Source: Candidatus Latescibacterota bacterium (GTDB taxonomy: Bacteria; Latescibacterota; UBA2968; GCA-2709665). Taken from it: 64,000 nt of DNA. The first letter of the stretch is position 1. Each line of letters starts with the position of its first letter. Position numbers and translations under genes: made by a program. The stretch covers positions 4,992,001 through 5,056,000 of the forward strand of contig OZ250150.1 in the NCBI GenBank assembly GCA_965237675.1. The letters are read 5' to 3'. The notes beneath the pieces are model-generated. The model ran no database searches. It saw nothing but the letters and a program-made list of their open reading frames with translations, and was not told the origin of the DNA. Below, one piece after another: positions 32,518-61,220 of the stretch.

Positions 32518-32594
32518 GTACGACTCCTCCCCGAAGTTTCGGAGATTTGTGGGCATTAGAATCTCCCCCTCCCCTTAACGTCCCCTATTCCCGT

Positions 32595-36259: not shown

Positions 36260-36289
36260 GTCACTTCCTCCTAAAGGTTTTGAACCCGC

Positions 36290-38761
36290 TTACTTGATCA
36301 GCACGAAGCTGCCTCTTCGGGTCTCTCCGCCGTCCACAACCACGAAATAGTACAGACCGGTCTGCACCTCGCCGGCGATATTGAACGTGATCTGACGAAA
36401 TTCGGTCTCACCCTTGGTGAGCGGGGTCCGATCCGTCGTTTCCACGCGGTCGCCGGAGGCCGAGTAAATGTGAATTACCGCATTGGCAGTCAGGCCCACG
36501 ATGCGAAGGTTGCGGGAGTTGGGGTACTGGTGCTTTCCGTCCACGTAATACGGATTCGGCACGATCAGCACCTCTTCGGGAAGGCTGGACAACAGGGCCT
36601 GGAACGGCTTGCGATTGTCGCCGTCGAAGGTCCTGGCCGTAGATGGCCCCCAGCCGCTCTCATATCCCCTACGGATATTGGCCTTCACGCGGTCGCTGGG
36701 GATGTCGTCGATTGTCATCCCGCTGTCCCAGGTATAGGAATCCACCCCTCTGGCGTACGGGCGAGCCGAATAGAAATAGGAAAAGCCGGCTGCGGTCTCC
36801 AGGTCTTCATATTCATAGAGACCGTCGGCATTTACGCCCCAGACGCCGCGGTCCAGGCCCGTCGGACTAGTGGAAGACCCGCTGGAACCGTTTTCGATCA
36901 CGTCGTACAGCTCCCAGGGGCCCCAGGAGAACCAATTCGACTTGTACACCCGGTAGCCCAATATGTCCAGTTCGCCCGTATAGGGATTTACAGCTGATTC
37001 CGACTGCCGGCCCCACCGGATCAACTGCTTGGCATTGGTTGAGGACGTCAGATTATCGGCCGAAATATACGCCTCGCTGGGCGACGCGGGCACCTGGTAG
37101 TTGTTGTCGTAGACCCAATGGGCCAGCTTCAGATTCTCCAGGGCGGCCTTTTCGCCGTCGGTCTTGATCTTGCTGATCTTGTTCTCGGGGGAATCGCTGG
37201 AACGGTCCCACTTCAAAAGGCCGACATCCTGCTCGTTGGCCGGAATCGGCGCCAGCAGCGAGGGGTGCCCCGCTCCCCAGGCAAGCACAATCTTCACGGA
37301 CTCGCCCGCGCCCACGGTGTACGGTCCGTACACCGTCATATCGTGAAACACCTTGCGCGTGGAAATATCCTCCTCGTCCGCATTGCCCTGATAACCTGAC
37401 GTGGTTATGGTACTGGCCAGCTGCCCGGCGGTGTGCGTGGTGTACGTGGGGTCGTCGAAGTCGCCCGTCGACCTTGCCAGCCACCACTGGAACGAACGCG
37501 GCTGCAGGGCCTCGGCGGGTTGCGCGTACTTGCCCCGGTCGGCTTCGTTGAATGAGAACTTGTCCGCGTCGTCGGCATAGGCGATGGGCGCCATGAAATA
37601 GGTGCTGGGCGCTCTCGGCTGGCCTTCGGTCTGCAGGATATCGTAGTTTGATGGCACAATCGCCTTGAAGAACGGGTCGCCCGTATCGTCGTGCGAGGAA
37701 AACGGGTTGTCGGAGTCCCTGCGGATGACCGCGCGCATATCCTCACCTACGAACGCGCCGTTCTGCGAGTAGGCATTCGGATAGCCGTCGGCCTCCGTAT
37801 ACCACATGGTGTCGTCCATACCCCGTGCGTTGGACGCGTAGAAGTTCCATCCGAACTCCTCGAGGATGCCCATCGCCGTCATTGCCGCTACATTCTTGAA
37901 CGCGATGTAAAGGTTGTTGATGGGGCCCGGCGCCTCGCCGACGCCATCGCCGTCGAAATCCCCGATGTTGCTAAAGGTGAGATCCACAATGTAGAAGTCA
38001 TCGAAATCCGGGTTGGACCAGCTGTACACCCGCCGCTGGACAAGGATACCGTTCTGTTTGTCCACCCACTGGGCAATGATGGTCTCTTCGGGAAGGGTCA
38101 CGTCCACAAGGTTGTGCGCACCCAGCTTATAATTGGCGATATGGGCGGGCGGGGTTGTTACCGGATCCCCGTCATTCTCGTAAAGGCTTCCGTCATCCAG
38201 GTTGGTGACCCCGGGCCAGTAATTGGACAGGGAACCCGCGGCGCCCTGTTCGCCCGGAGAGATCGCGCTATTCACCGCTTCCGCGAGTTCCCTCAACGGA
38301 TTGGGCTGGCCCCAGCTTTCCTCCGGATTGCCCACCGGATCGTAGGGCAGCGCCTGGTTGTGTTCGACGATCTGCAGATTCTCCCTCGGCCCGGTTACCG
38401 TCACCGTGCCGGCGTCGGCGTTCAGGATCCAGATGCCCTCGCCGCCCGAGACCTTGTAGTCGTTGTACATCTGCGACTTCTGGTTGGACGTGAACTGTGA
38501 CAGCACCGCGCCGAACGAACCTGGGCCCTGGCCGTTCCAGGGATAGGCGTTGCGCCTGGAGCCGCGGCCCCATTCCTGGTTGCCGCCCATCCCGCCTATG
38601 TTGTTGTAACTGTTGGAAATCAATGATCGCAGGTTGTACCTGCTTGCTATGTTGTCGGGAGTGGCTTGGGCATCGGCCGGGGCCGCTTCAAATACAACCG
38701 CACCCAGTGCAAGGCAACCGATGGGGACCAACCCCTTAGCGATGAAATTCAATCGTTTCAT
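36290..38761 (-). CDS. Secreted protein with an FN3-like region and T9SS-type C-terminal domain
   Basis: Signal peptide ending ADAQ; GYRVYKS; C-terminal IVPNPY...IYSASGDRV...GLYYFVV...GSFVLIK. Confidence 0.75.
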   Translation of the reverse strand: MKRLNFIAKGLVPIGCLALGAVVFEAAPADAQATPDNIASRYNLRSLISNSYNNIGGMGGNQEWGRGSRRNAYPWNGQGPGSFGAVLSQFTSNQKSQMYNDYKVSGGEGIWILNADAGTVTVTGPRENLQIVEHNQALPYDPVGNPEESWGQPNPLRELAEAVNSAISPGEQGAAGSLSNYWPGVTNLDDGSLYENDGDPVTTPPAHIANYKLGAHNLVDVTLPEETIIAQWVDKQNGILVQRRVYSWSNPDFDDFYIVDLTFSNIGDFDGDGVGEAPGPINNLYIAFKNVAAMTAMGILEEFGWNFYASNARGMDDTMWYTEADGYPNAYSQNGAFVGEDMRAVIRRDSDNPFSSHDDTGDPFFKAIVPSNYDILQTEGQPRAPSTYFMAPIAYADDADKFSFNEADRGKYAQPAEALQPRSFQWWLARSTGDFDDPTYTTHTAGQLASTITTSGYQGNADEEDISTRKVFHDMTVYGPYTVGAGESVKIVLAWGAGHPSLLAPIPANEQDVGLLKWDRSSDSPENKISKIKTDGEKAALENLKLAHWVYDNNYQVPASPSEAYISADNLTSSTNAKQLIRWGRQSESAVNPYTGELDILGYRVYKSNWFSWGPWELYDVIENGSSGSSTSPTGLDRGVWGVNADGLYEYEDLETAAGFSYFYSARPYARGVDSYTWDSGMTIDDIPSDRVKANIRRGYESGWGPSTARTFDGDNRKPFQALLSSLPEEVLIVPNPYYVDGKHQYPNSRNLRIVGLTANAVIHIYSASGDRVETTDRTPLTKGETEFRQITFNIAGEVQTGLYYFVVVDGGETRRGSFVLIK

Positions 38762-38800
38762 ATCCTTCTCTGCCTCCATTCGAAAGCATCACGGAGCAAG

Positions 38801-38831
38801 CGCACCGGAAGGACATGCACCTTCCGGTGCG
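38801..38831. promoter_or_regulatory. Intercistronic stem-loop after the TonB receptor gene
   Basis: Perfect 12-bp stem CGCACCGGAAGG-acatgca-CCTTCCGGTGCG without a U-tract. Confidence 0.6.
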
Positions 38832-38838
38832 TCACTGT

Positions 38839-41800
38839 CTACCAATTCAGGCGCAGTCCGAACTGGGCCAGACGCGGCGTATGCGCGTACAACCGATCCC
38901 GGCTGTCACCGTAGTTCAGGTAATTCTTGTCGTCCGGTGCCGGTCCATCATTTCCGGTATACGCCCAGATGTTTCTTAGGCTCGAGTGGACGATCCGGTC
39001 CTTCTGGTTGAAAACGTTCCGGATGTCGGCGAACAGCGTGGGTTGCACCCGGCCGGCCACATTGAAGGTTTTCTCAATGGCGAGGTCGGTCCGCGAATCC
39101 AGCGCAAGGTCGCGATAGTACGCGTTTCCGCCTGCGGGCGAGGAGTAGCGGAAGATGCCGCCCGTCTGGATGCGCGACGTTACGTTCAGCCGCAGATTTT
39201 TGAGCACGTTCCCTACAACGGCGTGGCCGAACTCGAAATCATCCGGGAAAGAGGCCAATAGCGAAAAACTCCCGAAGTTCCTGCGGTCGCCGCTTTTGGG
39301 CCGGAAGAAAAGGGTTGTATAGCTGCCCGAGTTGATCTTGACCGTGCAGTTCGCACCGCAATCCGCCAGGGCCGGGCTGTCCACCGGACGCAGGCCGTCC
39401 CACACGCCCGTTCCCAACTGGCCGCCTTTCGCCCGCGAGCCATCGTGGAAACGCTGGCCCATTTGCGAGAATGTAACCAGGTCGTCGCCGGTCAACCTGC
39501 GCGGGGCCTCGCTGCCGTCCGGAAGGGGGTCGAAATAAACCCAGAAATTGGGGACGGTAACGCCTCTTTCGGTGAACGCGTTGGTTGTGGCCAGGTGCAC
39601 CACCGTGGCAGAGTCCATGTAGACGTTGCGGATGACGTTACCCAGTTTACCCGTGGTGATCTGCGACCACTGGTAGTTGTACGACACGTTGAACGCGAAG
39701 TTGTGCGAGAAGGACTTGCGAATGGACATTTCGACGCCGCGCGTGTCGCCGTAGGCGCCGTTGTCCAGGGTCCGCGAATACGGGATCCCGAAGTCCCTGG
39801 GGCCAACCCACGTCTCGTTCGGATAAGACGTGAAGTGGTCCACCTCGCTCTTGTAATACGCGGTTAACGTGGCCGTATAGTCACTCACGAAGTTCCAGTC
39901 GGCCCCCACCTCGAAGGCCGTGGTTTTGGCGGGTTGCAGCAGGTGCAGCCCGTTCTGGCCCGAATAGGTGGTGCGGAAGTTGTTCAGCCGCTCCGTGGCG
40001 TCGATCCGACCGTTTTCGTTCACGTCCCTGTCGCCGGCATCGCCGGACGTCCAGTAGTCTTCCCCGAAATAATACCAGAGGTCGGCCCATTGGAGGAACA
40101 CACCCGTGGAGAACCGCATCTGCGAACGCTCCGTGATCGGATGCGACACGCCGATCCGGGGGCTGAACTTCACGTGCCACGGCGCATCGGTGACCCAGAG
40201 CGAGCCCTCCTGGTACGCCCAGTCCCGAGCACGGGTGTAATAGCGGAACATCGAACTCCCCCGAAACGCTCCAAAGGTCAACTGGCGGGAGTTCGGATTG
40301 AACGTGTCGAGGCGGACGCCCAGGTTCACGATCATCCCCTGGAACTCCATTTTATCCTGGAGGTAGGCGTTAAGGAAGAAGGGTTTCACCTTCTCGCCGA
40401 TCTGGCCCTCGTCCACGATCAGCCGCAGATTCCGGGCGGCCGGGGTTGTATCGTACCGGAATATCATTGTGATGGCGCTGGTCTGGTACTCGACCCCCGC
40501 CTTCAGGAAGTTCCCCTTGGTGACCTGCGACGACAGATCGACCTTGGCCCCGATGCGCTGCCGGTCGGACTGGCCCCATCGGGCGGCCTGGCGGCCGATG
40601 CTGAACCACGCGGCCTGATCCCGGTGGATTTCCTTTGAAATGTCGTGCGTGCCGCTGACCGTATCCATTTTTGACCGGGAATGCGAAAGCCGCACTTCGT
40701 AGAACGTCCTCGGGGACAGCGTGTGCGTAAGCACCGCGTATTGCAGTTCTTCCTTGAGGTTGTGCAGTCCCGCGGCGGACCACTGCTCGGGCAGGAACAG
40801 GTCGCGGCCATCCCCACGCCTAAACGCGCCGCCGCCGCCGCCATGACGCCCGCCGAAGAGGTCCGGATTGCCGTTCGAATACCAGTCCCAACCCAGGTAC
40901 AGGCCGCCCAACTTCAACTTCAGGTTGGCCGTTGGCTTGATCGTGATGCTTCCCGAAACGTTGATGTTGCCCGGATCGTCCTGAAAGCTCCCGCGGTCAT
41001 TGTAGAACCCGATCCGCTCCGCGCGCGGCGTTGCGGCCGCATAACGGTCGTGCTTGGCCGTGACCACGAACGACGCCTTGTCTCCGATCGGGCCGGACAC
41101 GTTGCCCTCAACGCCGAAACCGACCCATTCCGTGTAGTTCGTCCGGACGTGGATGAGTTCGCCCGCCAGTTCCTCGAAAATGGGATCGTTGATCTGACCG
41201 GAGAGATCCGGCCACTTCTCATTGGCCCAAATCGGGTCGTCCCAATTCACCTTGTCCTGATGCTGCGGCGAATCGTACACGTTCTCGCCCCAGTGCTTCT
41301 TGCCTGCGGGTTCGTAACGGAATTCGCCCCAACCATTCAGCTCACCGCCGCCTTCTTTGGTTATGATTTGAACCACACCGCCCTGGGCATTGCCGTATTC
41401 GGCGGGGGTCACCCCCGTGAGCACGGACAATTCCTGGATGGCGCCGCGGTTCACGCTGCGGAACCGGCCGCCGCGACCACGACCGTCGTTGTGGTTCATT
41501 CGTACGCCGTCCACCACGTATGCCACGTCGCTTGCGTACCAGCCGGCATCGACGTAGGCGCCGCGAATCCGGTTGGATCCGTCAACGGCCACGCCCGGCT
41601 GCAACTGCAGCAACTCCGAGGTCCGGCGGGCCGACGCCAGGTTCCGCTCGGTTTCTTCGAGAGAAATCGTGTATTTACTGGTGGTCTTATCCGGCTCCAC
41701 CAGGGGACGGCCGGCCGTCACCACCAACTCGCCCAGTTCCAGGGCGGTCTCTTTCAGGTTGTAGTTAATGGTGGTGGTATGGTCCACGCTGATCTGAACG

Positions 41801-42075
41801 CCGGTCTGCGACACGGTCTCGTAACCGATCAGCGATGCCGAGAGGGTGTAGACACCCGGCGAAATATTGATGATGACATAATATCCGTCGGCATCCGCCG
41901 TGGAACCCAGATTCAGTTCCTTGATCACGACGTTGGCTCCGGGAAGGACTTCCCCTGCCTGGTCACGCACAACGCCGTTGAGCTTGCCGGTGACACCCGC
42001 GTGCAGATCGGCCGTGGCGAAACACCCCGCCGCTACGGCAACTGCAACACCAAAAAACAGAAGCTTACGCTTCAT
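38839..42075 (-). CDS. TonB-dependent receptor with carboxypeptidase regulatory-like N-terminal domain
   Basis: TGKLNGVVRD...LPGANV, AEYGNAQGGVV.IITKEG plug, YLQDKMEF, SPRIGVSHPIT, C-terminal PRL..FGLRLNW. Confidence 0.92.
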   Translation of the reverse strand: MKRKLLFFGVAVAVAAGCFATADLHAGVTGKLNGVVRDQAGEVLPGANVVIKELNLGSTADADGYYVIINISPGVYTLSASLIGYETVSQTGVQISVDHTTTINYNLKETALELGELVVTAGRPLVEPDKTTSKYTISLEETERNLASARRTSELLQLQPGVAVDGSNRIRGAYVDAGWYASDVAYVVDGVRMNHNDGRGRGGRFRSVNRGAIQELSVLTGVTPAEYGNAQGGVVQIITKEGGGELNGWGEFRYEPAGKKHWGENVYDSPQHQDKVNWDDPIWANEKWPDLSGQINDPIFEELAGELIHVRTNYTEWVGFGVEGNVSGPIGDKASFVVTAKHDRYAAATPRAERIGFYNDRGSFQDDPGNINVSGSITIKPTANLKLKLGGLYLGWDWYSNGNPDLFGGRHGGGGGAFRRGDGRDLFLPEQWSAAGLHNLKEELQYAVLTHTLSPRTFYEVRLSHSRSKMDTVSGTHDISKEIHRDQAAWFSIGRQAARWGQSDRQRIGAKVDLSSQVTKGNFLKAGVEYQTSAITMIFRYDTTPAARNLRLIVDEGQIGEKVKPFFLNAYLQDKMEFQGMIVNLGVRLDTFNPNSRQLTFGAFRGSSMFRYYTRARDWAYQEGSLWVTDAPWHVKFSPRIGVSHPITERSQMRFSTGVFLQWADLWYYFGEDYWTSGDAGDRDVNENGRIDATERLNNFRTTYSGQNGLHLLQPAKTTAFEVGADWNFVSDYTATLTAYYKSEVDHFTSYPNETWVGPRDFGIPYSRTLDNGAYGDTRGVEMSIRKSFSHNFAFNVSYNYQWSQITTGKLGNVIRNVYMDSATVVHLATTNAFTERGVTVPNFWVYFDPLPDGSEAPRRLTGDDLVTFSQMGQRFHDGSRAKGGQLGTGVWDGLRPVDSPALADCGANCTVKINSGSYTTLFFRPKSGDRRNFGSFSLLASFPDDFEFGHAVVGNVLKNLRLNVTSRIQTGGIFRYSSPAGGNAYYRDLALDSRTDLAIEKTFNVAGRVQPTLFADIRNVFNQKDRIVHSSLRNIWAYTGNDGPAPDDKNYLNYGDSRDRLYAHTPRLAQFGLRLNW

Positions 42076-42119
42076 TGTGATACCCCCTTCGTTGAGTTTT
42101 TACCCCGGCTGCCGGAAAA

Positions 42120-42839
42120 TTACCGCCAGAAGTAAATCTTAAACTGGGCGCCGACGTCGACCATGTGAATGGGCCGCACCTTCTCCAGTCCATAGAACAG
42201 CATATTGCGCAATTCGCCCACAACAAAGCTATAGCGCGCGCGCAGGTCGACGGCCAGGTTCTGCGTTACGAAGCCCTCGACACCGAAGCCGGCATTGGCG
42301 CCGATGGTGTATCGCTGATCGATCTGGTCTTCCATGACAAAGTCCAGGTCGATCGGATCGTTCGTCTGGCGGGAATACACCAGGTTGCTGTTGATGGCGT
42401 TGTAACGATACAGGCCGCCGCCAACGAGGAAATAATACCGATAATCCCTGGCCTTGAACCCGTGCATGGCATTCTCTTCGCCAACGAAAAGCAGGCCGTT
42501 CACGATCAGATTATTCCACGTGATTTCGGACTTGCCGTCCGGGTGCGGGTATTCCTGCTGGTCGATCGGGTAGATCCAGGGCTCGGACGCCGGTTTCCCG
42601 TTGGTGAACTTCGAGTAGTTGTACTCGATTTCAATAACGGTGCGCTGGCTGGCTACGTAGCTAATCGTTGCCCCGTATTTGCCCGTGGCGCCCCAGCGCT
42701 CGCCGAGCCGAAGCATCGGGATGTTGTAATCGGCGATCCCGCCGACTGCCCATCTACCTTCCTGAGCCAGTGCGCTGTCGGACAGACCCGCTGCCACCAG
42801 CACAAAAACAGCCAGAAAAGCAAAACGCACAACTTTCAT
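42120..42839 (-). CDS. Outer-membrane beta-barrel protein
   Basis: Signal peptide (ALAQE), YFLVGGG, GANAGFGVE, DLRARY, aromatic C-terminus; GGAGG RBS. Confidence 0.75.
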   Translation of the reverse strand: MKVVRFAFLAVFVLVAAGLSDSALAQEGRWAVGGIADYNIPMLRLGERWGATGKYGATISYVASQRTVIEIEYNYSKFTNGKPASEPWIYPIDQQEYPHPDGKSEITWNNLIVNGLLFVGEENAMHGFKARDYRYYFLVGGGLYRYNAINSNLVYSRQTNDPIDLDFVMEDQIDQRYTIGANAGFGVEGFVTQNLAVDLRARYSFVVGELRNMLFYGLEKVRPIHMVDVGAQFKIYFWR

Positions 42840-43757: not shown

Positions 43758-44567
43758 CTATTTCAATAACAACATCCGCTGGATCGCCGAGTAACTGCCC
43801 GCCTGAATTCGATAGAGGTACACGCCGCTGGCAACCTGGCGACCACGTTCATCGGACCCATCCCAGGTAGCCTTGAAGAAACCGGCTTCCATTCTTTCAT
43901 TCACCAGAACCCGCACCTCCTGGCCAAGTATATTGTACACCACGAGGCGTACCCAACCAGCATCAGGAAGCCGGTACCCTATTACTGTGGACGGATTGAA
44001 CGGATTCGGCGCGTTCCGATCCAGACCGTAGGCATCGGGGAGTGGCTTCATGTCTCCGATTTCCACGTGGGTCAACGGTTCAATCGCTCCGTCCAGACCG
44101 ACCAGTACGCTTTCCGAGACGCGAAAATCCTCCGCCGACGGCGTCACGCTCGTCTTGAAGACGAGGTCCAGAAGATTACCCTCTCCTGAGGCGCCATTGC
44201 CGTCAAACTTCATCGCGCCGACTTCCAATTTACCCTGTGTCCGATTTGAGGCCATAAAAAGTGTCTCCTGATCGGAACCGGTCTTGAGCAGATTGCGGCC
44301 CAGTTCCGTCGCTTCGACGAATTCATACTTGCCCTCATCGTATTCCAGCAGAAACCCGTATCCCTTTATGTCGCGGACTTGGGATATGGCGACTCGCACA
44401 ATCAGAATTCCCGTATCGTGTGCGGAATCGTCGCGCCGCTCCAGCGTGAGTTTAGCCAACGCGTTTGGACCACCGGTAACGGTAAGGCCCCTGGTCATCT
44501 CTCCCGCCAATAGTGGGACGGTCAAGACGAACACAAAACAAAGGATTGCGACAACATGCTTCTTCAT
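43758..44567 (-). CDS. Signal peptide + cohesin-like domain + FlgD/T9SS type-A C-terminal domain
   Basis: IKGYGFLLEYD...EFV...ASGEGNLLDLVFK (cohesin-like); NAPNPFNPST...YNILGQEVRVLV...WDG...VASGVYLY...MLLLK (CTD); AAGGAGG RBS. Confidence 0.82.
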   Translation of the reverse strand: MKKHVVAILCFVFVLTVPLLAGEMTRGLTVTGGPNALAKLTLERRDDSAHDTGILIVRVAISQVRDIKGYGFLLEYDEGKYEFVEATELGRNLLKTGSDQETLFMASNRTQGKLEVGAMKFDGNGASGEGNLLDLVFKTSVTPSAEDFRVSESVLVGLDGAIEPLTHVEIGDMKPLPDAYGLDRNAPNPFNPSTVIGYRLPDAGWVRLVVYNILGQEVRVLVNERMEAGFFKATWDGSDERGRQVASGVYLYRIQAGSYSAIQRMLLLK

Positions 44568-44689
44568 AGCTACCTCCTTGAGAATCGTCACGTCTGGGGT
44601 GACGACCTGAGTTACGTGATCATTAAACGTCTCGGCCTTGTCGTTAAAGGACGGACCATTGGTAGGTTCACACGAAGTGAGGTGAATCG

Positions 44690-47600
44690 CTATTCTGAAC
44701 TATCACCAGATTCGCTGCTTCCGCTTCTCGAAGACGAGTCGCGTTCAATGTGGCGAGTGAGAATGACCATGTCAGCGAAATTAATGACCCCGTCGCGATT
44801 CAAATCCATCCTGGGGTCGAACCCTGAATCCGACGAACTCAGCCCGGATTTCTTATTGAACATGGCTGCGTCGTCTGCGTCGGTTCTACCGTCGCGATTG
44901 AAGTCACCCGACGAAATTGTTATCATAAATAGACGTGATGCCGTCCTGCCATCGTGATCTGTCACGTTCACGGTCACGTAGAAATTGCCGCTTTCCGTTG
45001 GCGTCCCAGAAATATCTCCTGACGAAGAAATACTCAATCCGGACGGCGCATCGGACAATGAATAGCTGTAGGATGTAACACCGCCGGATACATCGACGGA
45101 TATGACGTCAATCCCGGCGTTCAATTCCCCAAATGCATCGTTGATCGGAGCAATAAACAAGGGTTCCGCAACCCGCATTGTGAAAGATCTCGCTGCCGAG
45201 TAGTCGTCGTCGTCAGTGACGGTCACGTTCATGGTGAAATTACCAATCGACGAGGGTGTGCCCGAAATCAACCCACCTGAAGAAATGGCAAGACCCGAGC
45301 CGGACGTGCCCGAAAGCGAATAGGAATATGGCGTTGTGCCCCCGGAGGCGCTTACTTGTATAGATGAAATAGCCTCGCCTTTCGATGCCACCACGTTGGA
45401 AATCGCTGAAACGGACACCGGCGAAATCACCCTAACATTGAACGACTCATCGTCGGTCGCACCCTGCTTGTCCGTTGCGGTCACAGTCACCACATTTGAC
45501 GTGAGTGGACCCTGCGCTGTACCGCTGATAGCCCCTGTGGAACTATTAACCGATACCCAGGACGGCCCGCTCTTCTTGCTATATCTGATCGGCGTACAAC
45601 CTCCTGATGCCGACGCTGTTCTTGATGGCATCGTCTGACCGGCCTTAACCGTAACGTCTACGATATCGTTGACGGATAACGAAGTCGCACCTAAAACCTT
45701 TATGTCAAACGACTCATCGTCGATCTGACCCAAATTGCCCGTAGCCAGCACCGCCACCGTATAGTTCCCGCAAGCAGCAGAACTCGGCACCGTTCCCGTA
45801 ATGCTGCCGTTCGAGGCAACCCTGATCCAAGACGGGCCGCTCTTCTTCGTAAACGTGATCGGCGTACATCCTCCCGACGCGGTCGGCGTGACATTGATAG
45901 ATCCGTCCGGCGACTTCGTCATGTTCGAGATCGACCCGATGGCAAGCGTCGCACCCGGAACGGTGATGGTGAAGGATGTTTCGCAGGTCATCCCGTCTCT
46001 GTCGGTCGCCTTGACGACTACCGTGTAACTGTTGCATCTGGCCGAAGTCGGTACCGTGCCGGTGATCCTGCCACCGGAGGACACACTGATCCACGACGGG
46101 CCGCTCTTCTTCGTAAATGTGATCGGCGTGCACCCACCCGTCGTTGTGGCCGTGATGTCGATCGAACCACCCGCCGCCTTCGTCACGTCCGGGATTGACC
46201 CGCAGGTGAGCGTCGCACCCGGAACGGTGATGGTGAAGGATGTTTCGCAGGTCATCCCGTCTCTGTCGGTCGCCTTGACGACTACCGTGTAACTGTTGCA
46301 TCTGGCCGAAGTCGGTACCGTGCCGGTGATCCTGCCACCGGAGGACACACTGATCCACGACGGGCCGCTCTTCTTCGTAAATGTGATCGGCGTGCACCCA
46401 CCCGTCGTTGTGGCCGTGATGTCGATCGAACCACCCGCCGCCTTCGTCACGTCCGGGATTGACCCGCAGGTGAGCGTCGCACCCGGAACGGTGATGGTGA
46501 AGGATGTTTCGCAGGTCATCCCGTCTCTGTCGGTCGCCTTCACGACTACCGTGTAACTGTTGCATCTGGCCGAAGTCGGTACCGTGCCGGTGATCCTGCC
46601 GCCGGAGGACACACTGATCCACGACGGGCCGCTCTTCTTCGTAAATGTGATCGGCGTGCACCCACCCGTCGTTGTGGCCGTGATGTCGATCGAACCACCC
46701 GCCGCCTTCGTCACGTCCGGGATTGACCCGCAGGTGAGCGTCGCACCCGGAACGGTGATGGTGAAGGATGTTTCGCAGGTCATCCCGTCTCTGTCGGTCG
46801 CCTTCACGACTACCGTGTAACTGTTGCATCTGGCCGAAGTCGGTACCGTGCCGGTGATCCTGCCGCCGGAGGACACACTGATCCACGACGGGCCGCTCTT
46901 CTTCGTGAACGTCTTCGTCCCGCACCCACCGGATGTTGTGGCCGTGATGTCGATGGACGCGCCCGCCGCCTTCGTCATGTTCGAGATCGACCCGCAAGTA
47001 AGCGTCGCACCCGGAACGGTGATGGTGAAGGATGCTTCGCAGGTCATCCCGTCTCTGTCGGTCGCCTTGACGACTACCGTGTAACTGTTGCATCTGGCCG
47101 AAGTCGGTACCGTGCCGGTGATCCTGCCACCGGAGGACACACTGATCCACGACGGGCCGCTCTTCTTCGTAAATGTGATCGGCGTGCACCCACCCGTCGT
47201 TGTGGCCGTGATGTCGATCGAACCACCCGCCGCCTTCGTCACGTCCGGGATTGACCCGCAGGTGAGCGTCGCACCCGGAACGGTGATGGTGAAGGATGTT
47301 TCGCAGGTCATCCCGTCTCTGTCGGTCGCCTTCACGACTACCGTGTAACTGTTGCATCTGGCCGAAGTCGGTACCGTGCCGGTGATCCTGCCGCCGGAGG
47401 ACACACTGATCCACGACGGGCCGCTCTTCTTCGTAAATGTGATCGGCGTGCACCCACCCGTCGTTGTGGCCGTGATGTCGATCGAACCACCCGCCGCCTT
47501 CGTCACGTCCGGGATTGACCCGCAGGTGAGCGTCGCACCCGGAACGGTGATGGTGAAGGATGTTTCGCAGGTCATCCCGTCTCTGTCGGTCGCCTTCACG

Positions 47601-50600
47601 ACTACCGTGTAACTGTTGCATCTGGCCGAAGTCGGTACCGTGCCGGTGATCCTGCCGCCGGAGGACACACTGATCCACGACGGGCCGCTCTTCTTCGTGA
47701 ACGTCTTCGTCCCGCACCCACCGGATGTTGTGGCCGTGATGTCGATGGACGCGCCCGCCGCCTTCGTCATGTTCGAGATCGACCCGCAAGTAAGCGTCGC
47801 ACCCGGAACGGTGATGGTGAAGGATGCTTCGCAGGTCTTCCCGTCTCTGTCGGTCGCCTTCACGACTACCGTGTAATTGTTGCACCTGGCCGAAGTTGGT
47901 ACCGTCCCGGTGATGCTTCCGCCATCGGACACACTGACCCACGACGGACCGCTCTTCTTTGTAAACGTCTTCGTCCCGCACCCACCGGATGCGGTGGCCG
48001 TGACGTCGATGGACGCGCCCGCCGCCTTCGTCATGTTCGAGATCGACCCGCAGGTAAGCGTCGCACCCGGAACGGTGATGGTGAATGACTCTTCGTCGGT
48101 ATTCCCGTTCCCGTCGGTCACCTTCACCGTCACCGTGGGACTGCTGCACCTGGCCGAAGTTGGTACCGTCCCGGTGATCCTGCCGCCGGAGGACACACTG
48201 ACCCACGATGGACCGCTCTTCTTCGTGAACGTCTTCGTCCCGCACCCACCGGATGCGCTCGACGAGACATTGATCGAACCACCCGGCGACGCCGTCACGT
48301 CGTCGATATCCTCGACCGCAAGCGCCTCGCCAGAAACCGTGATCATAAACGATGCGTCCGCGGTCGCACCCTGCGCGTCCGTCGCCGTCACCGTCACCGT
48401 AAAGCTCTCGCAACCCGCTGTACCCGGCACCGTCCCCGTGATGCTGCCGTCCGACGCCACGCTGATCCACGAAGGCGTATCGCTGCCGGTCTTCTTCGTA
48501 AACGCGACCGGCGTGCATCCGCCCGTCGCGCTCGACGAGACATTGATCGAACCACCCGGCGACGCCGTCACGTCGTCAATATCCTCGACCGCAAGCGCCT
48601 CGCCAGAAACCGTGATCATAAACGATGCGTCCGCGGTCGCACCCTGCGCGTCCGTGGCCGTCAACGTCACCGTAAAGCTCTCGCAACCCGCTGTACCCGG
48701 CACCGTCCCCGTGATGCTGCCGTCCGACGCCACGCTGATCCACGAAGGCGTATCGCTGCCGGTCTTCTTCGTAAACGCGACCGGCGTGCATCCGCCCGTC
48801 GCACTCGACGTGATATTGATGGAGCCGCCAGGTGACGCCGTCACGTCGTCAATATCCTCGACCGCAAGCACTTCGCTCGAAACCGTGATCATAAACGACG
48901 CGTCGGCGGTCGCACCTTGCGCGTCCGTGGCCGTCAACGTCACCGTAAAACTCTCGCAACCCGCTGAACTCGGTACCGTTCCCGTGATGCTGCCGTCCGA
49001 CGCAACGCTGATCCACGACGGCGTATCACTTCCTGGCTTCTTCGCAAACGTGATCGGCGTGCACCCGCCCGTCGCACTCGACGTGATATTGATGGAGCCG
49101 CCAGGTGACGCCGTCACGTCGTCAAGGTCATCGATCGCAAGCGCCTCGCTCGAAACCGTGATCGCGAACGACGCGTCGGCGGTCGCACCCTGTGCGTCCG
49201 TGGCCGTCACCGTCACCGTAAAACTCTCGCAACCCGCTGAACTCGGTACCGTTCCCGTGATGCTGCCGTCCGACGCGACACTGATCCACGACGGCGTATC
49301 ACTGCCGGTCTTCTTCGAAAACGTGATCGGCGTGCATCCACCACTCGCGCTCGACGTGATATTGATCGAGCCGCCAGGAGACGCCGGCACGTCGTCGATA
49401 TTATCGACCGCAAGCGCCTCGCCCGTAACCGTGATCATAAACGACGCGTCGGCGGTTGCACCCTGCGCGTCCGTCGCCGTCACCGTCACCGTAAAACTCT
49501 CGCAACCAGTTGAACTCGGCACCGTTCCCGTGATGCTGCCGTCCGACGCGACACTGATCCACGACGGCGTATCACTGCCGGTCTTCTTCGAAAACGTGAT
49601 CGGCGTGCATCCACCACTCGCGCTCGACGTGATATTGATCGAGCCGCCAGGAGACGCCGGCACGTCGTCGATATTATCGACCGCAAGCGCCTCGCCCGTA
49701 ACCGTGATCGCGAACGACGCGTCGGCGGTCGCACCCTGCGCGTCCGTCGCCGTCACCGTCACCGTAAAACTCTCGCAACCAGTTGAACTCGGCACCGTTC
49801 CCGTGATGCTGCCGTCCGACGCGACACTGATCCACGACGGCGTATCACTGCCGGTCTTCTTCGAAAACGTGATCGGCGTGCATCCACCACTCGCGCTCGA
49901 CGTGATATTGATCGAGCCGCCAGGAGACGCCGGCACGTCGTCGATATTATCGACCGCAAGCGCCTCGCCCGTAACCGTGATCGCGAACGACGCGTCGGCG
50001 GTCGCACCCTGCGCGTCCGTCGCCGTCACCGTCACCGTAAAACTCTCGCAACCAGTTGAAGCCGGCACCGTTCCCGTGATGCTGCCGTCCGACGCGACAC
50101 TGATCCACGACGGCGTATCACTGCCGGTCTTCTTCGAAAACGTGATCGGCGTGCATCCACCACTCGCGCTCGACGTGATATTGATCGAGCCGCCAGGAGA
50201 CGCCGGCACGTCGTCGATATTATCGACCGCAAGCGCCTCGCCCGTAACCGTGATCATAAACGACGCGTCGGCGGTTGCACCCTGCGCGTCCGTCGCCGTC
50301 ACCGTCACCGTAAAACTCTCGCAACCAGTTGAAGCCGGCACCGTTCCCGTGATGCTGCCGTCCGACGCGACACTGATCCACGACGGCGTATCACTGCCGG
50401 TCTTCTTCGAAAACGTGATCGGCGTGCATCCACCACTCGCGCTCGACGTGATATTGATCGAGCCGCCAGGAGACGCCGGCACGTCGTCGATATTATCGAC
50501 CGCAAGCGCCTCGCCCGTAACCGTGATCATAAACGACGCGTCGGCGGTTGCACCCTGCGCGTCCGTCGCCGTCACCGTCACCGTAAAACTCTCGCAACCA

Positions 50601-51457
50601 GTTGAAGCCGGCACCGTTCCCGTGATGCTGCCGTCCGACGCGACACTGATCCACGACGGCGTATCACTGCCGGTCTTCTTCGAAAACGTGATCGGCGTGC
50701 ATCCACCACTCGCGCTCGACGTGATATTGATCGAGCCGCCAGGAGACGCCGGCACGTCGTCGATATCGTCGATCACGAGCGTCGGACAGTTTGGTTCCCC
50801 AGGCGTGGCGAAGGCCACATCCGAGGAAGGTCCAACCTTGCTTCCGGCTTGCGCCCTGACTTTGAACCGATACGTGGTGCCGTTCGTCAGATCGGTCACG
50901 ATATAGGTCGTCGTGTTCCTTTCGCTGCCTGGCACATCATTCCAAACATACGGTTGTCTGCCCTCCTTGACGCCGTATCGCCAGGATGAAACTCGATCCG
51001 TGGCGCTGGCCGCGCTCCAAGACAGCGTCACCTGCTCGTCGCCCGCTAACGCACTTAAGGTCGGAGTTGGGAAATCCTGCCCCTGACCGGGGGTGGCAGA
51101 CACCGCATCCGACGAAGGCCCTGTTTCGCTACCATCTCGCGCTTGAACCTTGAACCGATACGGGGTCCCATTCGTCAGGCCCGTCACCGTATACCTTGTT
51201 GTGTTCCTGTTGCTGCCTGGTACTTCCTTCCAAACATACGCGTTTCTGCCCTCCTTGACGCCGTATCTCCAGGATGAGGCTCGATCGGTGCTCTGAACCT
51301 CACTCCACGTCAGCGTCACCTGCCCGTCGCCCGCGACGGCAGTTACGGTCGGCGTTGGGAAACTCTGACCGTAAGATTGGGCGGGTAAACCTAAGAGCGA
51401 CACTAATGCAGAAAATAATGCGATACCGATTACGGCCTTTCGGTTAGCGTAATACAT
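44690..51457 (-). CDS. Giant surface protein: 2 FN3 + 22 Ig-like (He_PIG/cadherin-like) repeats + C-terminal dockerin
   Basis: Signal peptide; VTGLTNGT.YRFKV FN3 motifs; PSW.SV..G.ITGT.P...TVTATD repeats; GDFNRDG...DLNRDGVINFADM paired EF-hand dockerin. Confidence 0.9.
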   Translation of the reverse strand: MYYANRKAVIGIALFSALVSLLGLPAQSYGQSFPTPTVTAVAGDGQVTLTWSEVQSTDRASSWRYGVKEGRNAYVWKEVPGSNRNTTRYTVTGLTNGTPYRFKVQARDGSETGPSSDAVSATPGQGQDFPTPTLSALAGDEQVTLSWSAASATDRVSSWRYGVKEGRQPYVWNDVPGSERNTTTYIVTDLTNGTTYRFKVRAQAGSKVGPSSDVAFATPGEPNCPTLVIDDIDDVPASPGGSINITSSASGGCTPITFSKKTGSDTPSWISVASDGSITGTVPASTGCESFTVTVTATDAQGATADASFMITVTGEALAVDNIDDVPASPGGSINITSSASGGCTPITFSKKTGSDTPSWISVASDGSITGTVPASTGCESFTVTVTATDAQGATADASFMITVTGEALAVDNIDDVPASPGGSINITSSASGGCTPITFSKKTGSDTPSWISVASDGSITGTVPASTGCESFTVTVTATDAQGATADASFAITVTGEALAVDNIDDVPASPGGSINITSSASGGCTPITFSKKTGSDTPSWISVASDGSITGTVPSSTGCESFTVTVTATDAQGATADASFAITVTGEALAVDNIDDVPASPGGSINITSSASGGCTPITFSKKTGSDTPSWISVASDGSITGTVPSSTGCESFTVTVTATDAQGATADASFMITVTGEALAVDNIDDVPASPGGSINITSSASGGCTPITFSKKTGSDTPSWISVASDGSITGTVPSSAGCESFTVTVTATDAQGATADASFAITVSSEALAIDDLDDVTASPGGSINITSSATGGCTPITFAKKPGSDTPSWISVASDGSITGTVPSSAGCESFTVTLTATDAQGATADASFMITVSSEVLAVEDIDDVTASPGGSINITSSATGGCTPVAFTKKTGSDTPSWISVASDGSITGTVPGTAGCESFTVTLTATDAQGATADASFMITVSGEALAVEDIDDVTASPGGSINVSSSATGGCTPVAFTKKTGSDTPSWISVASDGSITGTVPGTAGCESFTVTVTATDAQGATADASFMITVSGEALAVEDIDDVTASPGGSINVSSSASGGCGTKTFTKKSGPSWVSVSSGGRITGTVPTSARCSSPTVTVKVTDGNGNTDEESFTITVPGATLTCGSISNMTKAAGASIDVTATASGGCGTKTFTKKSGPSWVSVSDGGSITGTVPTSARCNNYTVVVKATDRDGKTCEASFTITVPGATLTCGSISNMTKAAGASIDITATTSGGCGTKTFTKKSGPSWISVSSGGRITGTVPTSARCNSYTVVVKATDRDGMTCETSFTITVPGATLTCGSIPDVTKAAGGSIDITATTTGGCTPITFTKKSGPSWISVSSGGRITGTVPTSARCNSYTVVVKATDRDGMTCETSFTITVPGATLTCGSIPDVTKAAGGSIDITATTTGGCTPITFTKKSGPSWISVSSGGRITGTVPTSARCNSYTVVVKATDRDGMTCEASFTITVPGATLTCGSISNMTKAAGASIDITATTSGGCGTKTFTKKSGPSWISVSSGGRITGTVPTSARCNSYTVVVKATDRDGMTCETSFTITVPGATLTCGSIPDVTKAAGGSIDITATTTGGCTPITFTKKSGPSWISVSSGGRITGTVPTSARCNSYTVVVKATDRDGMTCETSFTITVPGATLTCGSIPDVTKAAGGSIDITATTTGGCTPITFTKKSGPSWISVSSGGRITGTVPTSARCNSYTVVVKATDRDGMTCETSFTITVPGATLTCGSIPDVTKAAGGSIDITATTTGGCTPITFTKKSGPSWISVSSGGRITGTVPTSARCNSYTVVVKATDRDGMTCETSFTITVPGATLAIGSISNMTKSPDGSINVTPTASGGCTPITFTKKSGPSWIRVASNGSITGTVPSSAACGNYTVAVLATGNLGQIDDESFDIKVLGATSLSVNDIVDVTVKAGQTMPSRTASASGGCTPIRYSKKSGPSWVSVNSSTGAISGTAQGPLTSNVVTVTATDKQGATDDESFNVRVISPVSVSAISNVVASKGEAISSIQVSASGGTTPYSYSLSGTSGSGLAISSGGLISGTPSSIGNFTMNVTVTDDDDYSAARSFTMRVAEPLFIAPINDAFGELNAGIDVISVDVSGGVTSYSYSLSDAPSGLSISSSGDISGTPTESGNFYVTVNVTDHDGRTASRLFMITISSGDFNRDGRTDADDAAMFNKKSGLSSSDSGFDPRMDLNRDGVINFADMVILTRHIERDSSSRSGSSESGDSSE
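45950..48061 (-). repeat. Eight tandem 264-bp (88-aa) coding repeats, type B
   Basis: Near-identical units at 264-bp spacing (mirrored by shadow ORFs at 46032, 46296, ...); a hybrid A/B unit lies at 48062-48325. Confidence 0.95.
48326..50782 (-). repeat. Nine tandem 273-bp (91-aa) coding repeats, type A
   Basis: Near-identical units at 273-bp spacing, all with KK(T/P)GSDTPSW. Confidence 0.95.
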
Positions 51458-54506: not shown

Positions 54507-55092
54507 TTCCTCAGTCCTCCTGGACACAGACATTGCGACGCGTAACACAGGACCCATACTCGGCGCTTTCGCGCGAATACTTTTCCGCGACCCTTATTTC
54601 CCCTGGTCTGGGCCGCCAACAACAGATATCCATCTTCGGATGTATTAAACGATCAAGCTTCAAAAAAGATCGCATGAATTTGCAGAATTGTGTGCAAAGG
54701 AAGACATAATGGCAATAGTCTGAATTCGCATCCTGTCGTCTGTTGGCTGTCCGATATCGATATTTTCCCTTGACAACAAGATTATTTAATTGATATTTGG
54801 TCGCGTTCTGTACTCATTTTCGTCTCCGAACGACTTAATTGCCGTTCACCCGTCCGGTTGTATCTGTTTATCTGTTGTTTAGCGCGAGCAATACTCCGAT
54901 CGCGCCTGGTGGATAATACACCTCTCGGCATCCTCGTTACCCACATCCCACCGTCATACGTCCCCATTTTGATTCTGGAATCTCATTCGTGATCCCGGGG
55001 CCTACTACTCCATTCGGCACGCCGATGAAATCGTAGTTTCTTGTAGACAAACCCAAGTGTGAGGATTTAATAGCGTAGAGAGTCATCCCAGG

Positions 55093-56892: not shown

Positions 56893-57322
56893 ACCTGACC
56901 TCCGGTGGGCGGCGCCGCGGCGCCCTGGAGACGGGCGATTCGGATCGATTGAGAAGATTCGAATTTCGGGAAATAATATACCGGGTCCTGGATCAAATGT
57001 AAACCTTCCTGCGTCGGATTGATGGGAAATGTGGTCAAATGGATGGATTTTCGGTTGAATTATCACGCAGAGCACCTTAAAGTTGGCATCATACTCAACT
57101 ATGCTGCTTTGTTCGCGAATCAATCATCTCAACCCCTCACAATGGCTTGTCGAGCCGTTGAGGAAGTGTGTGTGAATGTGATCATAGGATTCGTCGAGCC
57201 AGAAAGTCCCGGTGACGCCCGTTAGTTAGTTGATTTCGCTGGCAGATGCGCTTTTAATGCCCTGCAGAATCCGCGAAAGATCCTGGCCTCCCAGCGGTTC
57301 CATAAGCCGGTTTGAAGTCTAT

Positions 57323-57494: not shown

Positions 57495-59024
57495 TCACCA
57501 GACGCCTGCGGCTTTCGACAATTCCTGGTGGCCGAACGCTCGCGCAAATAGTATAAAATCGCCAAATCCGACAACCCCGTCCATATCCAGGTCGTAACTG
57601 GCATACGGCGATTCCAGCCGACCCGTGGTTCGCCCGAACGCCCCGGCGAACATCACGAAATCTCCGAAATCCACGCTTCCATTGTCGTCGAAATCCGCAC
57701 TGTCCGACGCCCGCGTCTGCAGGAACAGCTGCCATATCAACTGATATACCGGATCGTCAATCCGTTTAGTCAGGGCATAGGTGACCACCCCATCGGCGAA
57801 GCCGTTACGCATCTGCGAGATCGCCATTCGCACTTTGTCCTGGATCCGCGATGGCGTTGCCGGCGGCCCGTTTCGTTTCTCGAACTGCGGCCGATGCGCC
57901 GCAATCATTACCACCAGTGGAATACGGAATCGCCCGGCGCCCCGATAGGCCGGTAGCGTTGTCACCCGCCAGGGCGACCGCATTTCCGCCGACCAGGCGC
58001 CGTCTCCGCTCAGCCCTTGGAATTCGATCCCATGAAACTCCACGTCCACGCCGAAATTGGACACCGCCCTGCGATCGTACACCCTGAACGTCACATCCAC
58101 CCGGACCTTACCCTCGACGTAACGCGTAACGTTCAGCGTCACCTTTCGCCACTTCCTGTCCCCGCCGCCGACGTCTTCGTCCCACGCGACCCGCCCATCG
58201 ATCAGGAATTCCTTGAAATGATATCCCGTCGTCGGACCGATATAGTCGTCGCGCTGTGAAAACCGTATCTCGTGGCGTTCGCCGGGATTGACCCGCATCC
58301 GCCGACGGATGGATGCAGCCGATCCGATGGCGGATCGAGTATTCCATGGATACGAGATAAGGTGCCGCTCGGGCTCGACGATCCGGTCGTTCAGGAAACG
58401 CCAGGCCCGCTGTATTGCCGCGGCATCCGCGGGATAGGCCGCCACCGCGCCATCGATCAGAGGGCCGTAATCCGTCACGAACTGTCTGTCGATTTCGGGA
58501 TAATACATCAGTGGCAGGAATCGCATTCCGGGGTTGAATGTTCTCGCGCGCTCCACCATGTTCTTCACATACGCGGGGGTATAAAACGCTGAGTTAGCCA
58601 TAAAATCGTCGATTACGAACGCCGCCAGGTTCGGATGGATCAGCCCCAGCCTCGCAATCTCCTCCGCCCATCTCAGGTAGTCCAGGCGAAAAGGCTCCGA
58701 ATACCGCGTTCCGTAAATCGGCGGACTCTCCGACGGAGGCACCAGATAGGCCCAGACGTCAATGCCCGCGTCCCGCGCCGCCGGCAAAAACAGCTTCAGA
58801 TCGTCCCAGTCCGTCTCCCGGTGCCATATGAGATAAAAATAGGTATCCACACGGAGTTGCGTCAGGCGCGCGATCATGCTCTCGACGTCCAGACGCCCGT
58901 CACCGCCGCGAAGCTCCGCATTATAGTCCGCGAGGAGTCCGGGGTTTTCCAGGAAACCCTCGCGGGCGCTCACCCCGTCCGACCCGCAGCACGCGATCAG
59001 ACCAGACAGGACCCACCACTTCAT
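57495..59024 (-). CDS. Secreted glycoside-hydrolase-like protein with a C-terminal EF-hand dockerin-like domain
   Basis: N-terminal signal; YLVPPSE, IDDF TIM-barrel-like region; DFDDNGSVDFGDFVMFA...YDLDMDGVVGFGDFILFA. Confidence 0.7.
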   Translation of the reverse strand: MKWWVLSGLIACCGSDGVSAREGFLENPGLLADYNAELRGGDGRLDVESMIARLTQLRVDTYFYLIWHRETDWDDLKLFLPAARDAGIDVWAYLVPPSESPPIYGTRYSEPFRLDYLRWAEEIARLGLIHPNLAAFVIDDFMANSAFYTPAYVKNMVERARTFNPGMRFLPLMYYPEIDRQFVTDYGPLIDGAVAAYPADAAAIQRAWRFLNDRIVEPERHLISYPWNTRSAIGSAASIRRRMRVNPGERHEIRFSQRDDYIGPTTGYHFKEFLIDGRVAWDEDVGGGDRKWRKVTLNVTRYVEGKVRVDVTFRVYDRRAVSNFGVDVEFHGIEFQGLSGDGAWSAEMRSPWRVTTLPAYRGAGRFRIPLVVMIAAHRPQFEKRNGPPATPSRIQDKVRMAISQMRNGFADGVVTYALTKRIDDPVYQLIWQLFLQTRASDSADFDDNGSVDFGDFVMFAGAFGRTTGRLESPYASYDLDMDGVVGFGDFILFARAFGHQELSKAAGVW

Positions 59025-61119: not shown

Positions 61120-61220
61120 GCCTCAACGCTCAAAATCCATTCCTTCCTTGACAGAACCCCTCGTTTCTGCGTTATTTTTCCGCTAAACAATGCCGAGTAA
61201 TCTCTGTGGAGGTTCTGCCC

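Follow-up and report, generated by a model that had tools for sequence, protein, structure and literature searches.

A single-cohesin protein with a type IX sorting domain and its giant dockerin-bearing neighbour point to a non-cellulosomal cohesin-dockerin system in a Latescibacterota genome

Results

A giant dockerin protein and a small cohesin protein encoded side by side

The pairing of cohesins with dockerins is familiar chiefly from the cellulosomes of Gram-positive cellulose degraders, which it holds together. Here we describe two genes of a candidate cohesin-dockerin pair in a Candidatus Latescibacterota bacterium, within a stretch of 64,000 nucleotides (nt) that we call the window (assembly GCA_965237675.1, contig OZ250150.1, positions 4,992,001 to 5,056,000 of the forward strand). 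On the minus strand, a gene for a giant secreted repeat protein ending in a dockerin is followed, in the same orientation, by a gene for a small protein, P0003, in which one cohesin domain is joined to a type A C-terminal sorting domain (CTD) of type IX secretion systems (T9SS). A preliminary description, made from the letters of this DNA, had placed the pair at positions 43758 to 51457, where we also find it, and had read it as a two-gene adaptor. Lengths below are in amino acids (aa) or base pairs (bp), and the features of the pair are as follows.

44690..51457, minus strand: giant secreted repeat protein, 2255 aa (open reading frame and translation; Pfam, NCBIfam)
48255..50772, minus strand: tandem array 1 in the giant gene, 273-nt unit, 9.2 copies, 96% matches (Tandem Repeats Finder)
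45780..48226, minus strand: tandem array 2 in the giant gene, 264-nt unit, 9.3 copies, 93% matches (Tandem Repeats Finder)
44747..44908, minus strand: dockerin module of the giant, residues 2184-2237, with two EF-hand-like calcium loops (Pfam Dockerin_1, subtype alignment)
44568..44689, minus strand: intergenic gap, 122 bp (sequence; promoter and terminator scan)
43758..44567, minus strand: cohesin-CTD protein P0003, 269 aa (start from the length of relatives; Pfam, NCBIfam; AF2 model)
44016..44501, minus strand: cohesin domain of P0003, residues 23-184 (Foldseek, PDB profile matches, Pfam on 22 family members, complex model)
43761..44015, minus strand: T9SS type A C-terminal sorting domain with a FlgD_ig-like fold, the last 85 residues of P0003 (TIGR04183, FlgD_ig)

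According to Pfam and the translation, the giant consists of a signal-like N-terminus, two fn3 domains, about 22 He_PIG Ig-like stretches, the C-terminal dockerin and a tail rich in Ser, Gly and acidic residues. In translation, array 1 (273-nt unit) codes for near-identical He_PIG repeats with two Cys apiece. The dockerin scores 30.2 bits against Pfam Dockerin_1 (PF00404, cut-off 22.9) and 34.5 bits in the genome scan, and its duplicated calcium loops, DFNRDGRTDADD and DLNRDGVINFAD, each accompanied by a helix, are legible in the translation. Searches with Pfam and NCBIfam detect no T9SS sorting domain among the 2255 residues, and direct reading of the last residues, which form the Ser/Gly/acidic tail, reveals no LPXTG motif. 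The protein is thus built as first described, ending in a paired EF-hand dockerin without a CTD or LPXTG.

The open reading frame (ORF) listed for the small gene begins at an upstream GTG and would give 277 aa. Of the 120 listed relatives, 103 have a length of exactly 269 aa; we therefore place the start at the ATG at 44567 and regard the 277-aa reading as unlikely. AGGAGG at 44573-44578 stands 5 nt from this ATG, and the N-terminus, MKKHVVAILCFVFVLTVPLLAG, reads as signal-like in the translation; the ribosome-binding site, signal peptide and gap of about 120 bp that had been claimed for the second gene are therefore all present. The promoter and terminator scan detected no terminator-like site in the 122-bp gap, so co-transcription of the giant and cohesin-CTD genes is likely.

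The N-terminal domain of P0003 is a cohesin

P0003 comprises a signal peptide (about residues 1-22), the cohesin (23-184) and the sorting domain (185-269). The last of these scores 27.5 bits against TIGR04183 (NCBIfam, cut-off 23; 29.7 bits in the genome scan) and 35.9 bits against FlgD_ig (Pfam, cut-off 27), which makes it type A. The N-terminal domain is identified as a cohesin by its fold, by profile matches to solved cohesins and by its paralogues, despite a Pfam score below the cut-off, so that the small protein does carry the one cohesin and the type A CTD originally assigned to it.

An AF2 model of P0003 built from 38 relatives reached a predicted local distance difference test score (pLDDT) of 83.3, with domain blocks mostly above 85. 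In a Foldseek comparison of this model with the PDB, solved cohesins dominate the list (2y3n, 2b59, 5k39, 6kgc, 2xdh, 2vo8 and others) at E 1e-6 to 1e-5, with a probability of 1.00 and target-normalised TM-scores of about 0.5-0.7; the top match is 2w1n, and the top fold matches are solved type I and type II cohesins. With a profile built from 22 domains of the family, five PDB sequences were matched at E<=0.01, all of them cohesin-bearing (the ScaB adaptor 3l8q and Clostridium perfringens NagJ entries). Pfam Cohesin is the only family matched by the N-domains of 19 of these 22 members at E<=0.01 (best 2e-13), and a precomputed PF00963 match stands on 16 of the 120 listed relatives. Within the genome, two large proteins have cohesins that match the N-domain of P0003 (E 6e-10 and 1.6e-8) and themselves pass Pfam Cohesin at about 46-51 bits, and a cohesin paralogue at C1:4145698-4146015 (27.8 bits) lies above the PF00963 cut-off. 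The lack of a cohesin fold, which the preliminary description had named as fatal to its claim, is contradicted alike by the AF2 model, Foldseek and the PDB profile.

Predicted fit of cohesin and dockerin

The fit of the two modules, which the same description had proposed to model, was assessed with cohesin residues 23-184 (38-row alignment), the dockerin (23-row alignment) and two calcium ions as input. The median score was 0.79, against 0.24 for the best control. In calibration, 116 of 157 solved complexes and 2 of 215 mismatched pairs attained the score mark; these counts are only roughly valid for this complex, since custom alignments and a riding ligand were used. The runs share at least 95% of their contacts, with a partner pLDDT of at least 81. 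Predicted contacts involve both dockerin helices and cohesin residues 68, 71, 101-109, 115-123 and 156-162, which we take to be the usual dockerin-binding face; the predicted interface positions are somewhat more conserved than the rest of the cohesin (mean majority frequency 0.764 versus 0.674, 25 sequences). Solved complexes exist for both families, and we therefore take this pass as support for likeness and not as proof of binding. We infer that the cohesin of P0003 would bind the dockerin of the giant in a calcium-dependent manner.

Cohesins, dockerins and sorting domains across the genome

The genome (G000) spans 5.6 Mb and is rated 99.93% complete, with 8.07% contamination. It encodes six small cohesin-CTD paralogues; in one of them, at C1:1166733-1167882 (minus strand), the sorting domain is split across two frames, probably by a frameshift, and the N-terminus shows a weak extra partial cohesin match. 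Pfam finds 52 dockerin matches at E<=0.01, 30 of them above the cut-off, and a hidden Markov model (HMM) trained on the genome's own dockerins finds about 102 ORFs. Sorting domains above the TIGR04183 cut-off number 15, and 8 of these sit on cohesin proteins.

Two large proteins (C1:1563328-1567734 and 1572289-1577394) end in a dockerin, a cohesin and a sorting domain on a single chain, and both their cohesin (E 6e-10) and their sorting domain (E about 1e-21) are homologous with those of P0003. The genome further encodes a 1638-aa protein with a cohesin, He_PIG, four LTD stretches and a sorting domain, as well as open frames of 815 and 1108 aa that combine a cohesin with a dockerin and have no sorting domain.

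In the 93 dockerin ORFs of at least 200 aa, the module is C-terminal in 63, near the N-terminus in 23 and internal in 7. By a crude heuristic, a signal-peptide-like start occurs in 70 of these 93 ORFs, compared with 662 of 3258 background ORFs. Pfam searches of 22 of the roughly 102 dockerin proteins returned WD40 in 14, Ldl_recept_b/SGL in 3, LRR in 2 and LTD in 1, the other 2 being the fused forms with only cohesin and CTD. In this sample, none of the 22 proteins has a glycoside hydrolase domain at E<=1e-5, and Pfam shows no carbohydrate-binding module (CBM) and only one cohesin on P0003. The lack of glycoside hydrolases among the sampled dockerin proteins, together with a CBM-free anchor bearing a single cohesin, led us to reject a cellulosome, in keeping with the earlier label 'non-cellulolytic'.

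Two further dockerin genes lie in the window.

57495..59024, minus strand: second dockerin protein, 509 aa, dockerin at residues 442-495 (genome-trained HMM; no Pfam family at E<=0.001)
61206..62993, plus strand: FG-GAP/ASPIC protein with a C-terminal dockerin (Pfam; genome scan 23.9 bits, above the cut-off; genome-trained HMM)

These two genes are flanked by genes for a DUF3179 protein (55681-57123, minus strand) and a DUF6785/DUF6784 protein (59128-61119, plus strand). Just upstream of the window, an island of about 90 kb (C1:4882803-4973147) holds about 25 dockerin genes, many of them tandem genes for proteins of about 680-730 aa with WD40 propellers and a dockerin at the C-terminus; it is unusual to see so many exported WD40 proteins. 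A second island (C1:5533574-5592637) holds about 17 dockerin genes (YWTD/SGL propellers, LRR, CARDB), and at its end stand a cohesin-CTD gene, two genes for AraC-type response regulators and the gene for a PorU-like C25 protease. The window also encodes large TPR proteins (23923-26109, 29056-32556, 33064-35040 and 52092-54557, all on the minus strand), and the TPR proteins of 1166 and 821 aa are members of a family of which the genome has at least 15 paralogues.

Secretion machinery

SprA is present, with TIGR04189 at 615 bits summed over a 2121-aa frame (cut-off 200). A PorU-like protein of 1919 aa has Propeptide_C25, Peptidase_C25 (245.7 bits) and a sorting domain of its own, and one cohesin-CTD gene lies 3.5 kb from its gene. 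A 448-aa protein of the PorV family scores 228 bits against the PorV/PorQ model NF033709 (cut-off 90) and 56 bits against Pfam PorV (cut-off 27), and the gene after it encodes a relative of a T9SS-dependent M6-like protein. The T9SS-like machinery that the preliminary description required is therefore found in so far as SprA, a C25 PorU-like protein and a PorV-family protein are encoded, but the equivalog cut-offs for PorU and PorV are missed. In the available excerpts of the literature, T9SS is allowed for in Gemmatimonadetes (PMC11285876), and folded and very large proteins are reported as T9SS cargo (PMC9251779). A search with one Pfam model, Secretin (PF00263), found no match in this genome, while matching 6 of 14 control genomes; the sequence thus shows no evident secretin, whether of type II or of a type IV pilus.

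Relatives and fused forms

The 269-aa family has 1695 database matches at E<=0.001. Ten of the listed relatives have a source name: seven are called 'T9SS type A sorting domain-containing protein [Gemmatimonadota bacterium]', one has the same name from Latescibacteria and two are 'hypothetical protein'. All 52 genomes of the order that were searched contain the small cohesin family. Among 60 relatives, a cohesin domain was found in 21/21 of family f1, 31/31 of f2, 1/5 of f3 and 2/3 of f4, and a window-like dockerin in 21/21, 31/31, 0/5 and 3/3, respectively, a phyletic match of cohesin and dockerin across families that is suggestive rather than statistical, as these genomes are kin. A profile that includes fused-type cohesins matched 141 of 168 genomes from the phylum; the free-standing small form is concentrated in f1 and f2, and anchors of the 269-aa type occur in 2-10 or more copies per genome. 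In one orthologue (L082, G014 C1:2404746-2405228), a single in-frame TAG stands between the cohesin and the sorting domain.

A comparison of fused and split architectures, another of the proposed checks, turned up both. Besides the two fused proteins of G000 described above, a metagenome-assembled genome (MAG) of Rhodothermaceae (locus L001, CAZCYQ010000066.1) has tandem genes of 2061 aa and >1211 aa, each with a dockerin and then a cohesin near the C-terminus; the complete gene ends in a sorting domain and the second runs off the contig end. L001 is the fused form of the pair that is split in the window, in another phylum of the Fibrobacterota-Chlorobiota-Bacteroidota (FCB) group. Searches of the protein database for longer, fused relatives of the cohesin domain found none, a negative of little weight. 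A locus search with the whole of P0003 drew almost solely sorting-domain matches from many FCB phyla; because its patterns came from that domain, it was of no use for synteny except at L001, L018 and L036.

Gene neighbourhood and pairing

We sampled 20 loci of about 13-19 kb around small cohesin genes. A dockerin gene lies within about 2 kb of the cohesin gene in 11 of them, all of which belong to three genera (g1, g2 and g3) within the window's family. In G000 a full dockerin gene is the direct neighbour of three of the six cohesin-CTD genes, against a background of about 102 of some 3350 crude genes, a rough comparison with chance in which the copies are not independent. The order of giant and then cohesin recurs at a second locus of the genome and in three other genomes of the genus.

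An alignment separating dockerin subtypes A and B defines subtype A, that of the giant, as GDFNGDGRRDAxDAxLFNKK...RMDLNGDGxINxADxVIL followed by a Ser-rich tail. At E<=1e-20, its occurrence is limited to 8 of the genus's 15 genomes, one of them G000, and it sits mostly on giant proteins, several matches falling in short or broken frames. The tail after the subtype-A dockerin in the window (44693-44746, minus strand) is conserved as Ser/Gly/acidic (DASSQS..SES..), also in the homologous tails of L129-L139, and is missing from the common dockerin subtype; it may serve for modification or as a spacer.

A tree of 41 cohesin domains groups the five cohesins adjacent to giants into one clade (support 0.997), which differs from the other clades at interface positions 101, 103, 105 and 115. 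This clade is always accompanied by a giant and giants occur without it, which argues for a shared pool of cohesin sockets, perhaps with preferences. Strict pairing of the subtype-A dockerin with its own cohesin clade was rejected as a necessity, as four genomes have the subtype without the clade.

Downstream of P0003 lies a co-oriented cassette.

35267..42839, minus strand: downstream cassette (Pfam, NCBIfam, blastp of paralogous cassettes and loci L079, L081 and L132)
42120-42839, minus strand: 239-aa protein
38839-42075, minus strand: SusC/RagA-like TonB-linked barrel
36290-38779, minus strand: 829-aa protein of no known family
35267-36259, minus strand: PorV/PorQ-family barrel (NCBIfam PorV_fam, 137.7 bits, cut-off 90)

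The cassette, whose third gene encodes a protein of about 800 aa of no known family, recurs in at least six copies in the genome (also at C1:1699514-1707062, 5206981-5214368, 414214-421450, 2295447-2302100 and 64662-71299). It stands behind the giant and cohesin pair in four genomes (G000, G003, G014 and G005) and near a cohesin gene in only two of the at least six copies in G000, and its membership in the cohesin-dockerin system is uncertain.

Discussion

We consider it fairly probable that P0003 is a T9SS-exported single-cohesin anchor that holds the giant on the surface, and that the pair is one instance of a genome-wide, non-cellulosomal system. Sec would take both proteins into the periplasm, from which P0003 would leave via the SprA translocon of a T9SS-like system, using its type A sorting domain. 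By analogy with Bacteroidota, the PorU-like protease would remove this domain, and P0003 would then probably be fixed to the outer face of the outer membrane. There its cohesin would hold the dockerin of the giant encoded upstream, non-covalently and with calcium, and would probably bind other dockerins as well. The giant, having crossed the outer membrane, would so be held on the cell surface as an adhesin-like fibre. On the scale of the genome, a few T9SS-tagged cohesin sockets would be matched by about a hundred dockerin-tagged repeat proteins, and these non-enzymatic proteins are probably held on the cell surface by this plug-and-socket system.

This proposal departs from the preliminary description in one respect. 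The plug-and-socket reading stands up to the computational tests, and the idea of plug-in display is to that extent upheld, but what emerges is a genome-wide system and not a closed two-gene device. A self-contained adaptor does not agree with six cohesin proteins and about 102 dockerin ORFs in one genome. Nor does it agree with the genes that follow giants: of the 14 subtype-A giants with a readable downstream gene, only 5 are followed by a cohesin-CTD gene, while 8 are followed by a gene for a protein of 735-877 aa that bears the common dockerin subtype at its C-terminus (the two that were scanned are WD40 proteins) and the remaining 1 by another ORF. Four genomes (G002, G008, G012 and G013) have subtype-A giants and no cohesin of the giant-adjacent clade, one partial copy in G008 being left out.

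The counts on giants also weigh against our proposal, and other results add to them. The cohesin of P0003 stays under the Pfam PF00963 cut-off of 24.1 (19.1 bits for the whole protein, 20.8 bits for the domain alone), and the genome-wide Pfam Cohesin scan does not have P0003's own copy among its matches. The pass of the complex model may reflect the model's memory of solved cohesin-dockerin structures. No dockerin gene was found in 9 of the 20 sampled loci, which belong to g3 (one of its two loci), g4, g5, g6, g8, g9, g10 and g16. With regard to secretion, the equivalog models give 314 bits for PorU (cut-off 420) with the 1919-aa C25 protein and 152 bits for PorV (cut-off 250) with the 448-aa protein. 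Among the components of the trans-envelope motor and ring (PorK/L/M/N, or GldK/L/M/N), GldK matches in the genome scan are weak, at most 90.9 bits (cut-off 350). The GldL and GldM models have no match in the genome, a negative that says little because the same models were silent in all 14 control genomes, GldM also in two Bacteroidota MAGs. Finally, the giant, lacking a sorting domain in a genome in which no secretin was found, has no known route to the surface.

Several of these points would also fit a reading that we hold to be improbable, in which there is no partnership at all: the cohesin-like domain would bind a glycan or another envelope protein, or be a structural Ig-like module, and the adjacency would come from the clustering of surface genes. 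The low Pfam score, the nine loci of relatives with no dockerin neighbour and the lack of an adjacent cohesin at most subtype-A giants are all as such a reading would have them, and non-cellulosomal cohesin and dockerin modules are, as Peer et al. reportedly noted in 2009, widespread and of mostly untested function. It is harder to reconcile with the conservation of the cohesin fold and of the predicted dockerin-binding face, with the result of complex modelling, with the existence of fused dockerin-cohesin-CTD tails in this genome and in L001, with the co-occurrence of cohesin and dockerin across families, and with the enrichment of dockerin genes beside cohesin genes in three genera. It is more improbable still, in our estimate, that P0003 acts as a released connector, its sorting domain cleaved and its cohesin set free, for instance within a matrix or biofilm, to cap or cross-link dockerin proteins alongside proteins bearing a cohesin as well as a dockerin. 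The proteins of 815 and 1108 aa that have both modules and no sorting domain could form chains, and no PorZ or anionic lipopolysaccharide (A-LPS) attachment component was identified, though no search was aimed at one; but a protein with one socket cannot cross-link alone, and a PorU-like protease of the sortase type is encoded, with one cohesin-CTD gene 3.5 kb away.

Since the giant has no sorting domain and no secretin was found, the piggyback alternative raised in the preliminary description stays alive, which overlaps with our proposal and differs in the site of binding and in the purpose of the system. P0003 would bind the dockerin in the periplasm and act as a sorting domain in trans, the complex would exit through SprA, and later tethering would be optional; we rate this as unlikely, although worth keeping in mind. 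The Secretin search was negative in a nearly complete genome and positive in several controls, and for this reason a type II route for the roughly 100 signal-peptide-bearing dockerin proteins is not evident. The genome has merely 15 sorting domains, 8 of them on cohesin proteins, and, with dockerins placed at either end or within the chain, a docking tag that works in any position fits better than a terminal signal. T9SS is reported to transport folded and very large proteins, and yet co-export is not described for it in the available excerpts of PMC9251779, where piggyback transport is discussed for peroxisomes and Tat. Carrier-mediated export through T9SS did not turn up in the literature searched, a cargo of 2255 aa held sideways by a small carrier would be a demanding substrate, and the secretin negative comes from one Pfam model, other outer-membrane routes not having been surveyed. 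Extended to the whole genome, and in our view just as doubtful, the cohesin-CTD proteins would be detachable T9SS export signals, to which about a hundred dockerin proteins, exported by Sec and tagged at one end or the other, would dock in the periplasm before crossing SprA as complexes. If this were true, cohesin-dockerin pairing would be a secretion-targeting code, beyond surface glue, and the system would be the first carrier-mediated (hitchhiker) secretion by T9SS.

Our preferred reading, that of a surface anchor, has functional parallels in other bacteria. The functionally closest systems are the single-cohesin anchoring proteins of clostridial cellulosomes, of the OlpA, OlpC and SdbA type. 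In both cases one cohesin and a surface-anchoring module capture dockerin proteins, but the anchoring module is an S-layer homology (SLH) module on a Gram-positive wall there and a T9SS type A sorting domain in a diderm here; moreover, the sampled cargo of the present system is non-enzymatic, with no glycoside hydrolase in 22 proteins, and the P0003 cohesin is below the Pfam cut-off. Glycoside hydrolase pairs of C. perfringens (NagJ; PDB 2jh2, 2ozn, 2o4e, 2w1n), the closest solved sequences to the family profile (E 6.5e-4 to 1.8e-3), likewise use cohesin and dockerin outside cellulose degradation, although as modules of secreted Gram-positive enzymes, with no fusion to a secretion tag and no dedicated small anchor. 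Gingipains are the Bacteroidota example of T9SS type A CTD cargo handled by PorV and PorU. Such cargo shares with P0003 the Sec signal peptide and the C-terminal Ig-like sorting domain, and SprA, PorV-family and C25 PorU-like proteins are encoded here too; the differences are that this organism lies outside Bacteroidota, that the PorU and PorV equivalog cut-offs are missed and that the passenger is only a socket. The fused tails at C1:1563328-1567734, 1572289-1577394 and L001 have the same three modules in one polypeptide that the window distributes over two adjacent gene products.

Within the FCB group, the closest system is the scaffoldin of Candidatus Stygibacter (Cloacimonadota), for which the available excerpts of Williams et al. 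2021 (PMC8542988) infer a cellulosome-like system with a 3755-aa scaffoldin of tandem cohesins and CBMs that ends in a T9SS C-terminal domain, and dockerins on a chitinase, an amylase and peptidases. As far as those excerpts go, the two have in common a cohesin protein whose C-terminal domain is taken to serve T9SS cell attachment, dockerins on proteins with signal peptides and the fact that each is known from sequence alone. They differ in that the anchor described here is a multi-copy protein of 269 aa with a single cohesin and no CBM, and that its cargo consists of WD40, YWTD, LRR and Ig repeats. The combination of a cohesin with a T9SS tag was thus already inferred for Cloacimonadota in that work (PMC8542988). 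A single-cohesin T9SS anchor was not found in the literature that we searched on cohesin, dockerin, type IX secretion and Gemmatimonadota/Gemmatimonadetes. What is new here is a minimal, strongly conserved, multi-copy 269-aa anchor made of one socket and a type IX tag, along with the dominance of cohesins among the T9SS-tagged proteins of the genome, a non-enzymatic dockerin repertoire and an apparent lack of secretin.

In this diderm lineage, the plug sits on about a hundred repeat proteins of a binding type rather than on enzymes. If binding is confirmed, the pairing would provide a simple rule in two parts for the choice of proteins that this poorly known phylum puts on display, as well as a compact natural display module for diderm bacteria, and, as no secretin was found, the system would make it possible to test directly whether proteins without a signal of their own can be exported by a T9SS.

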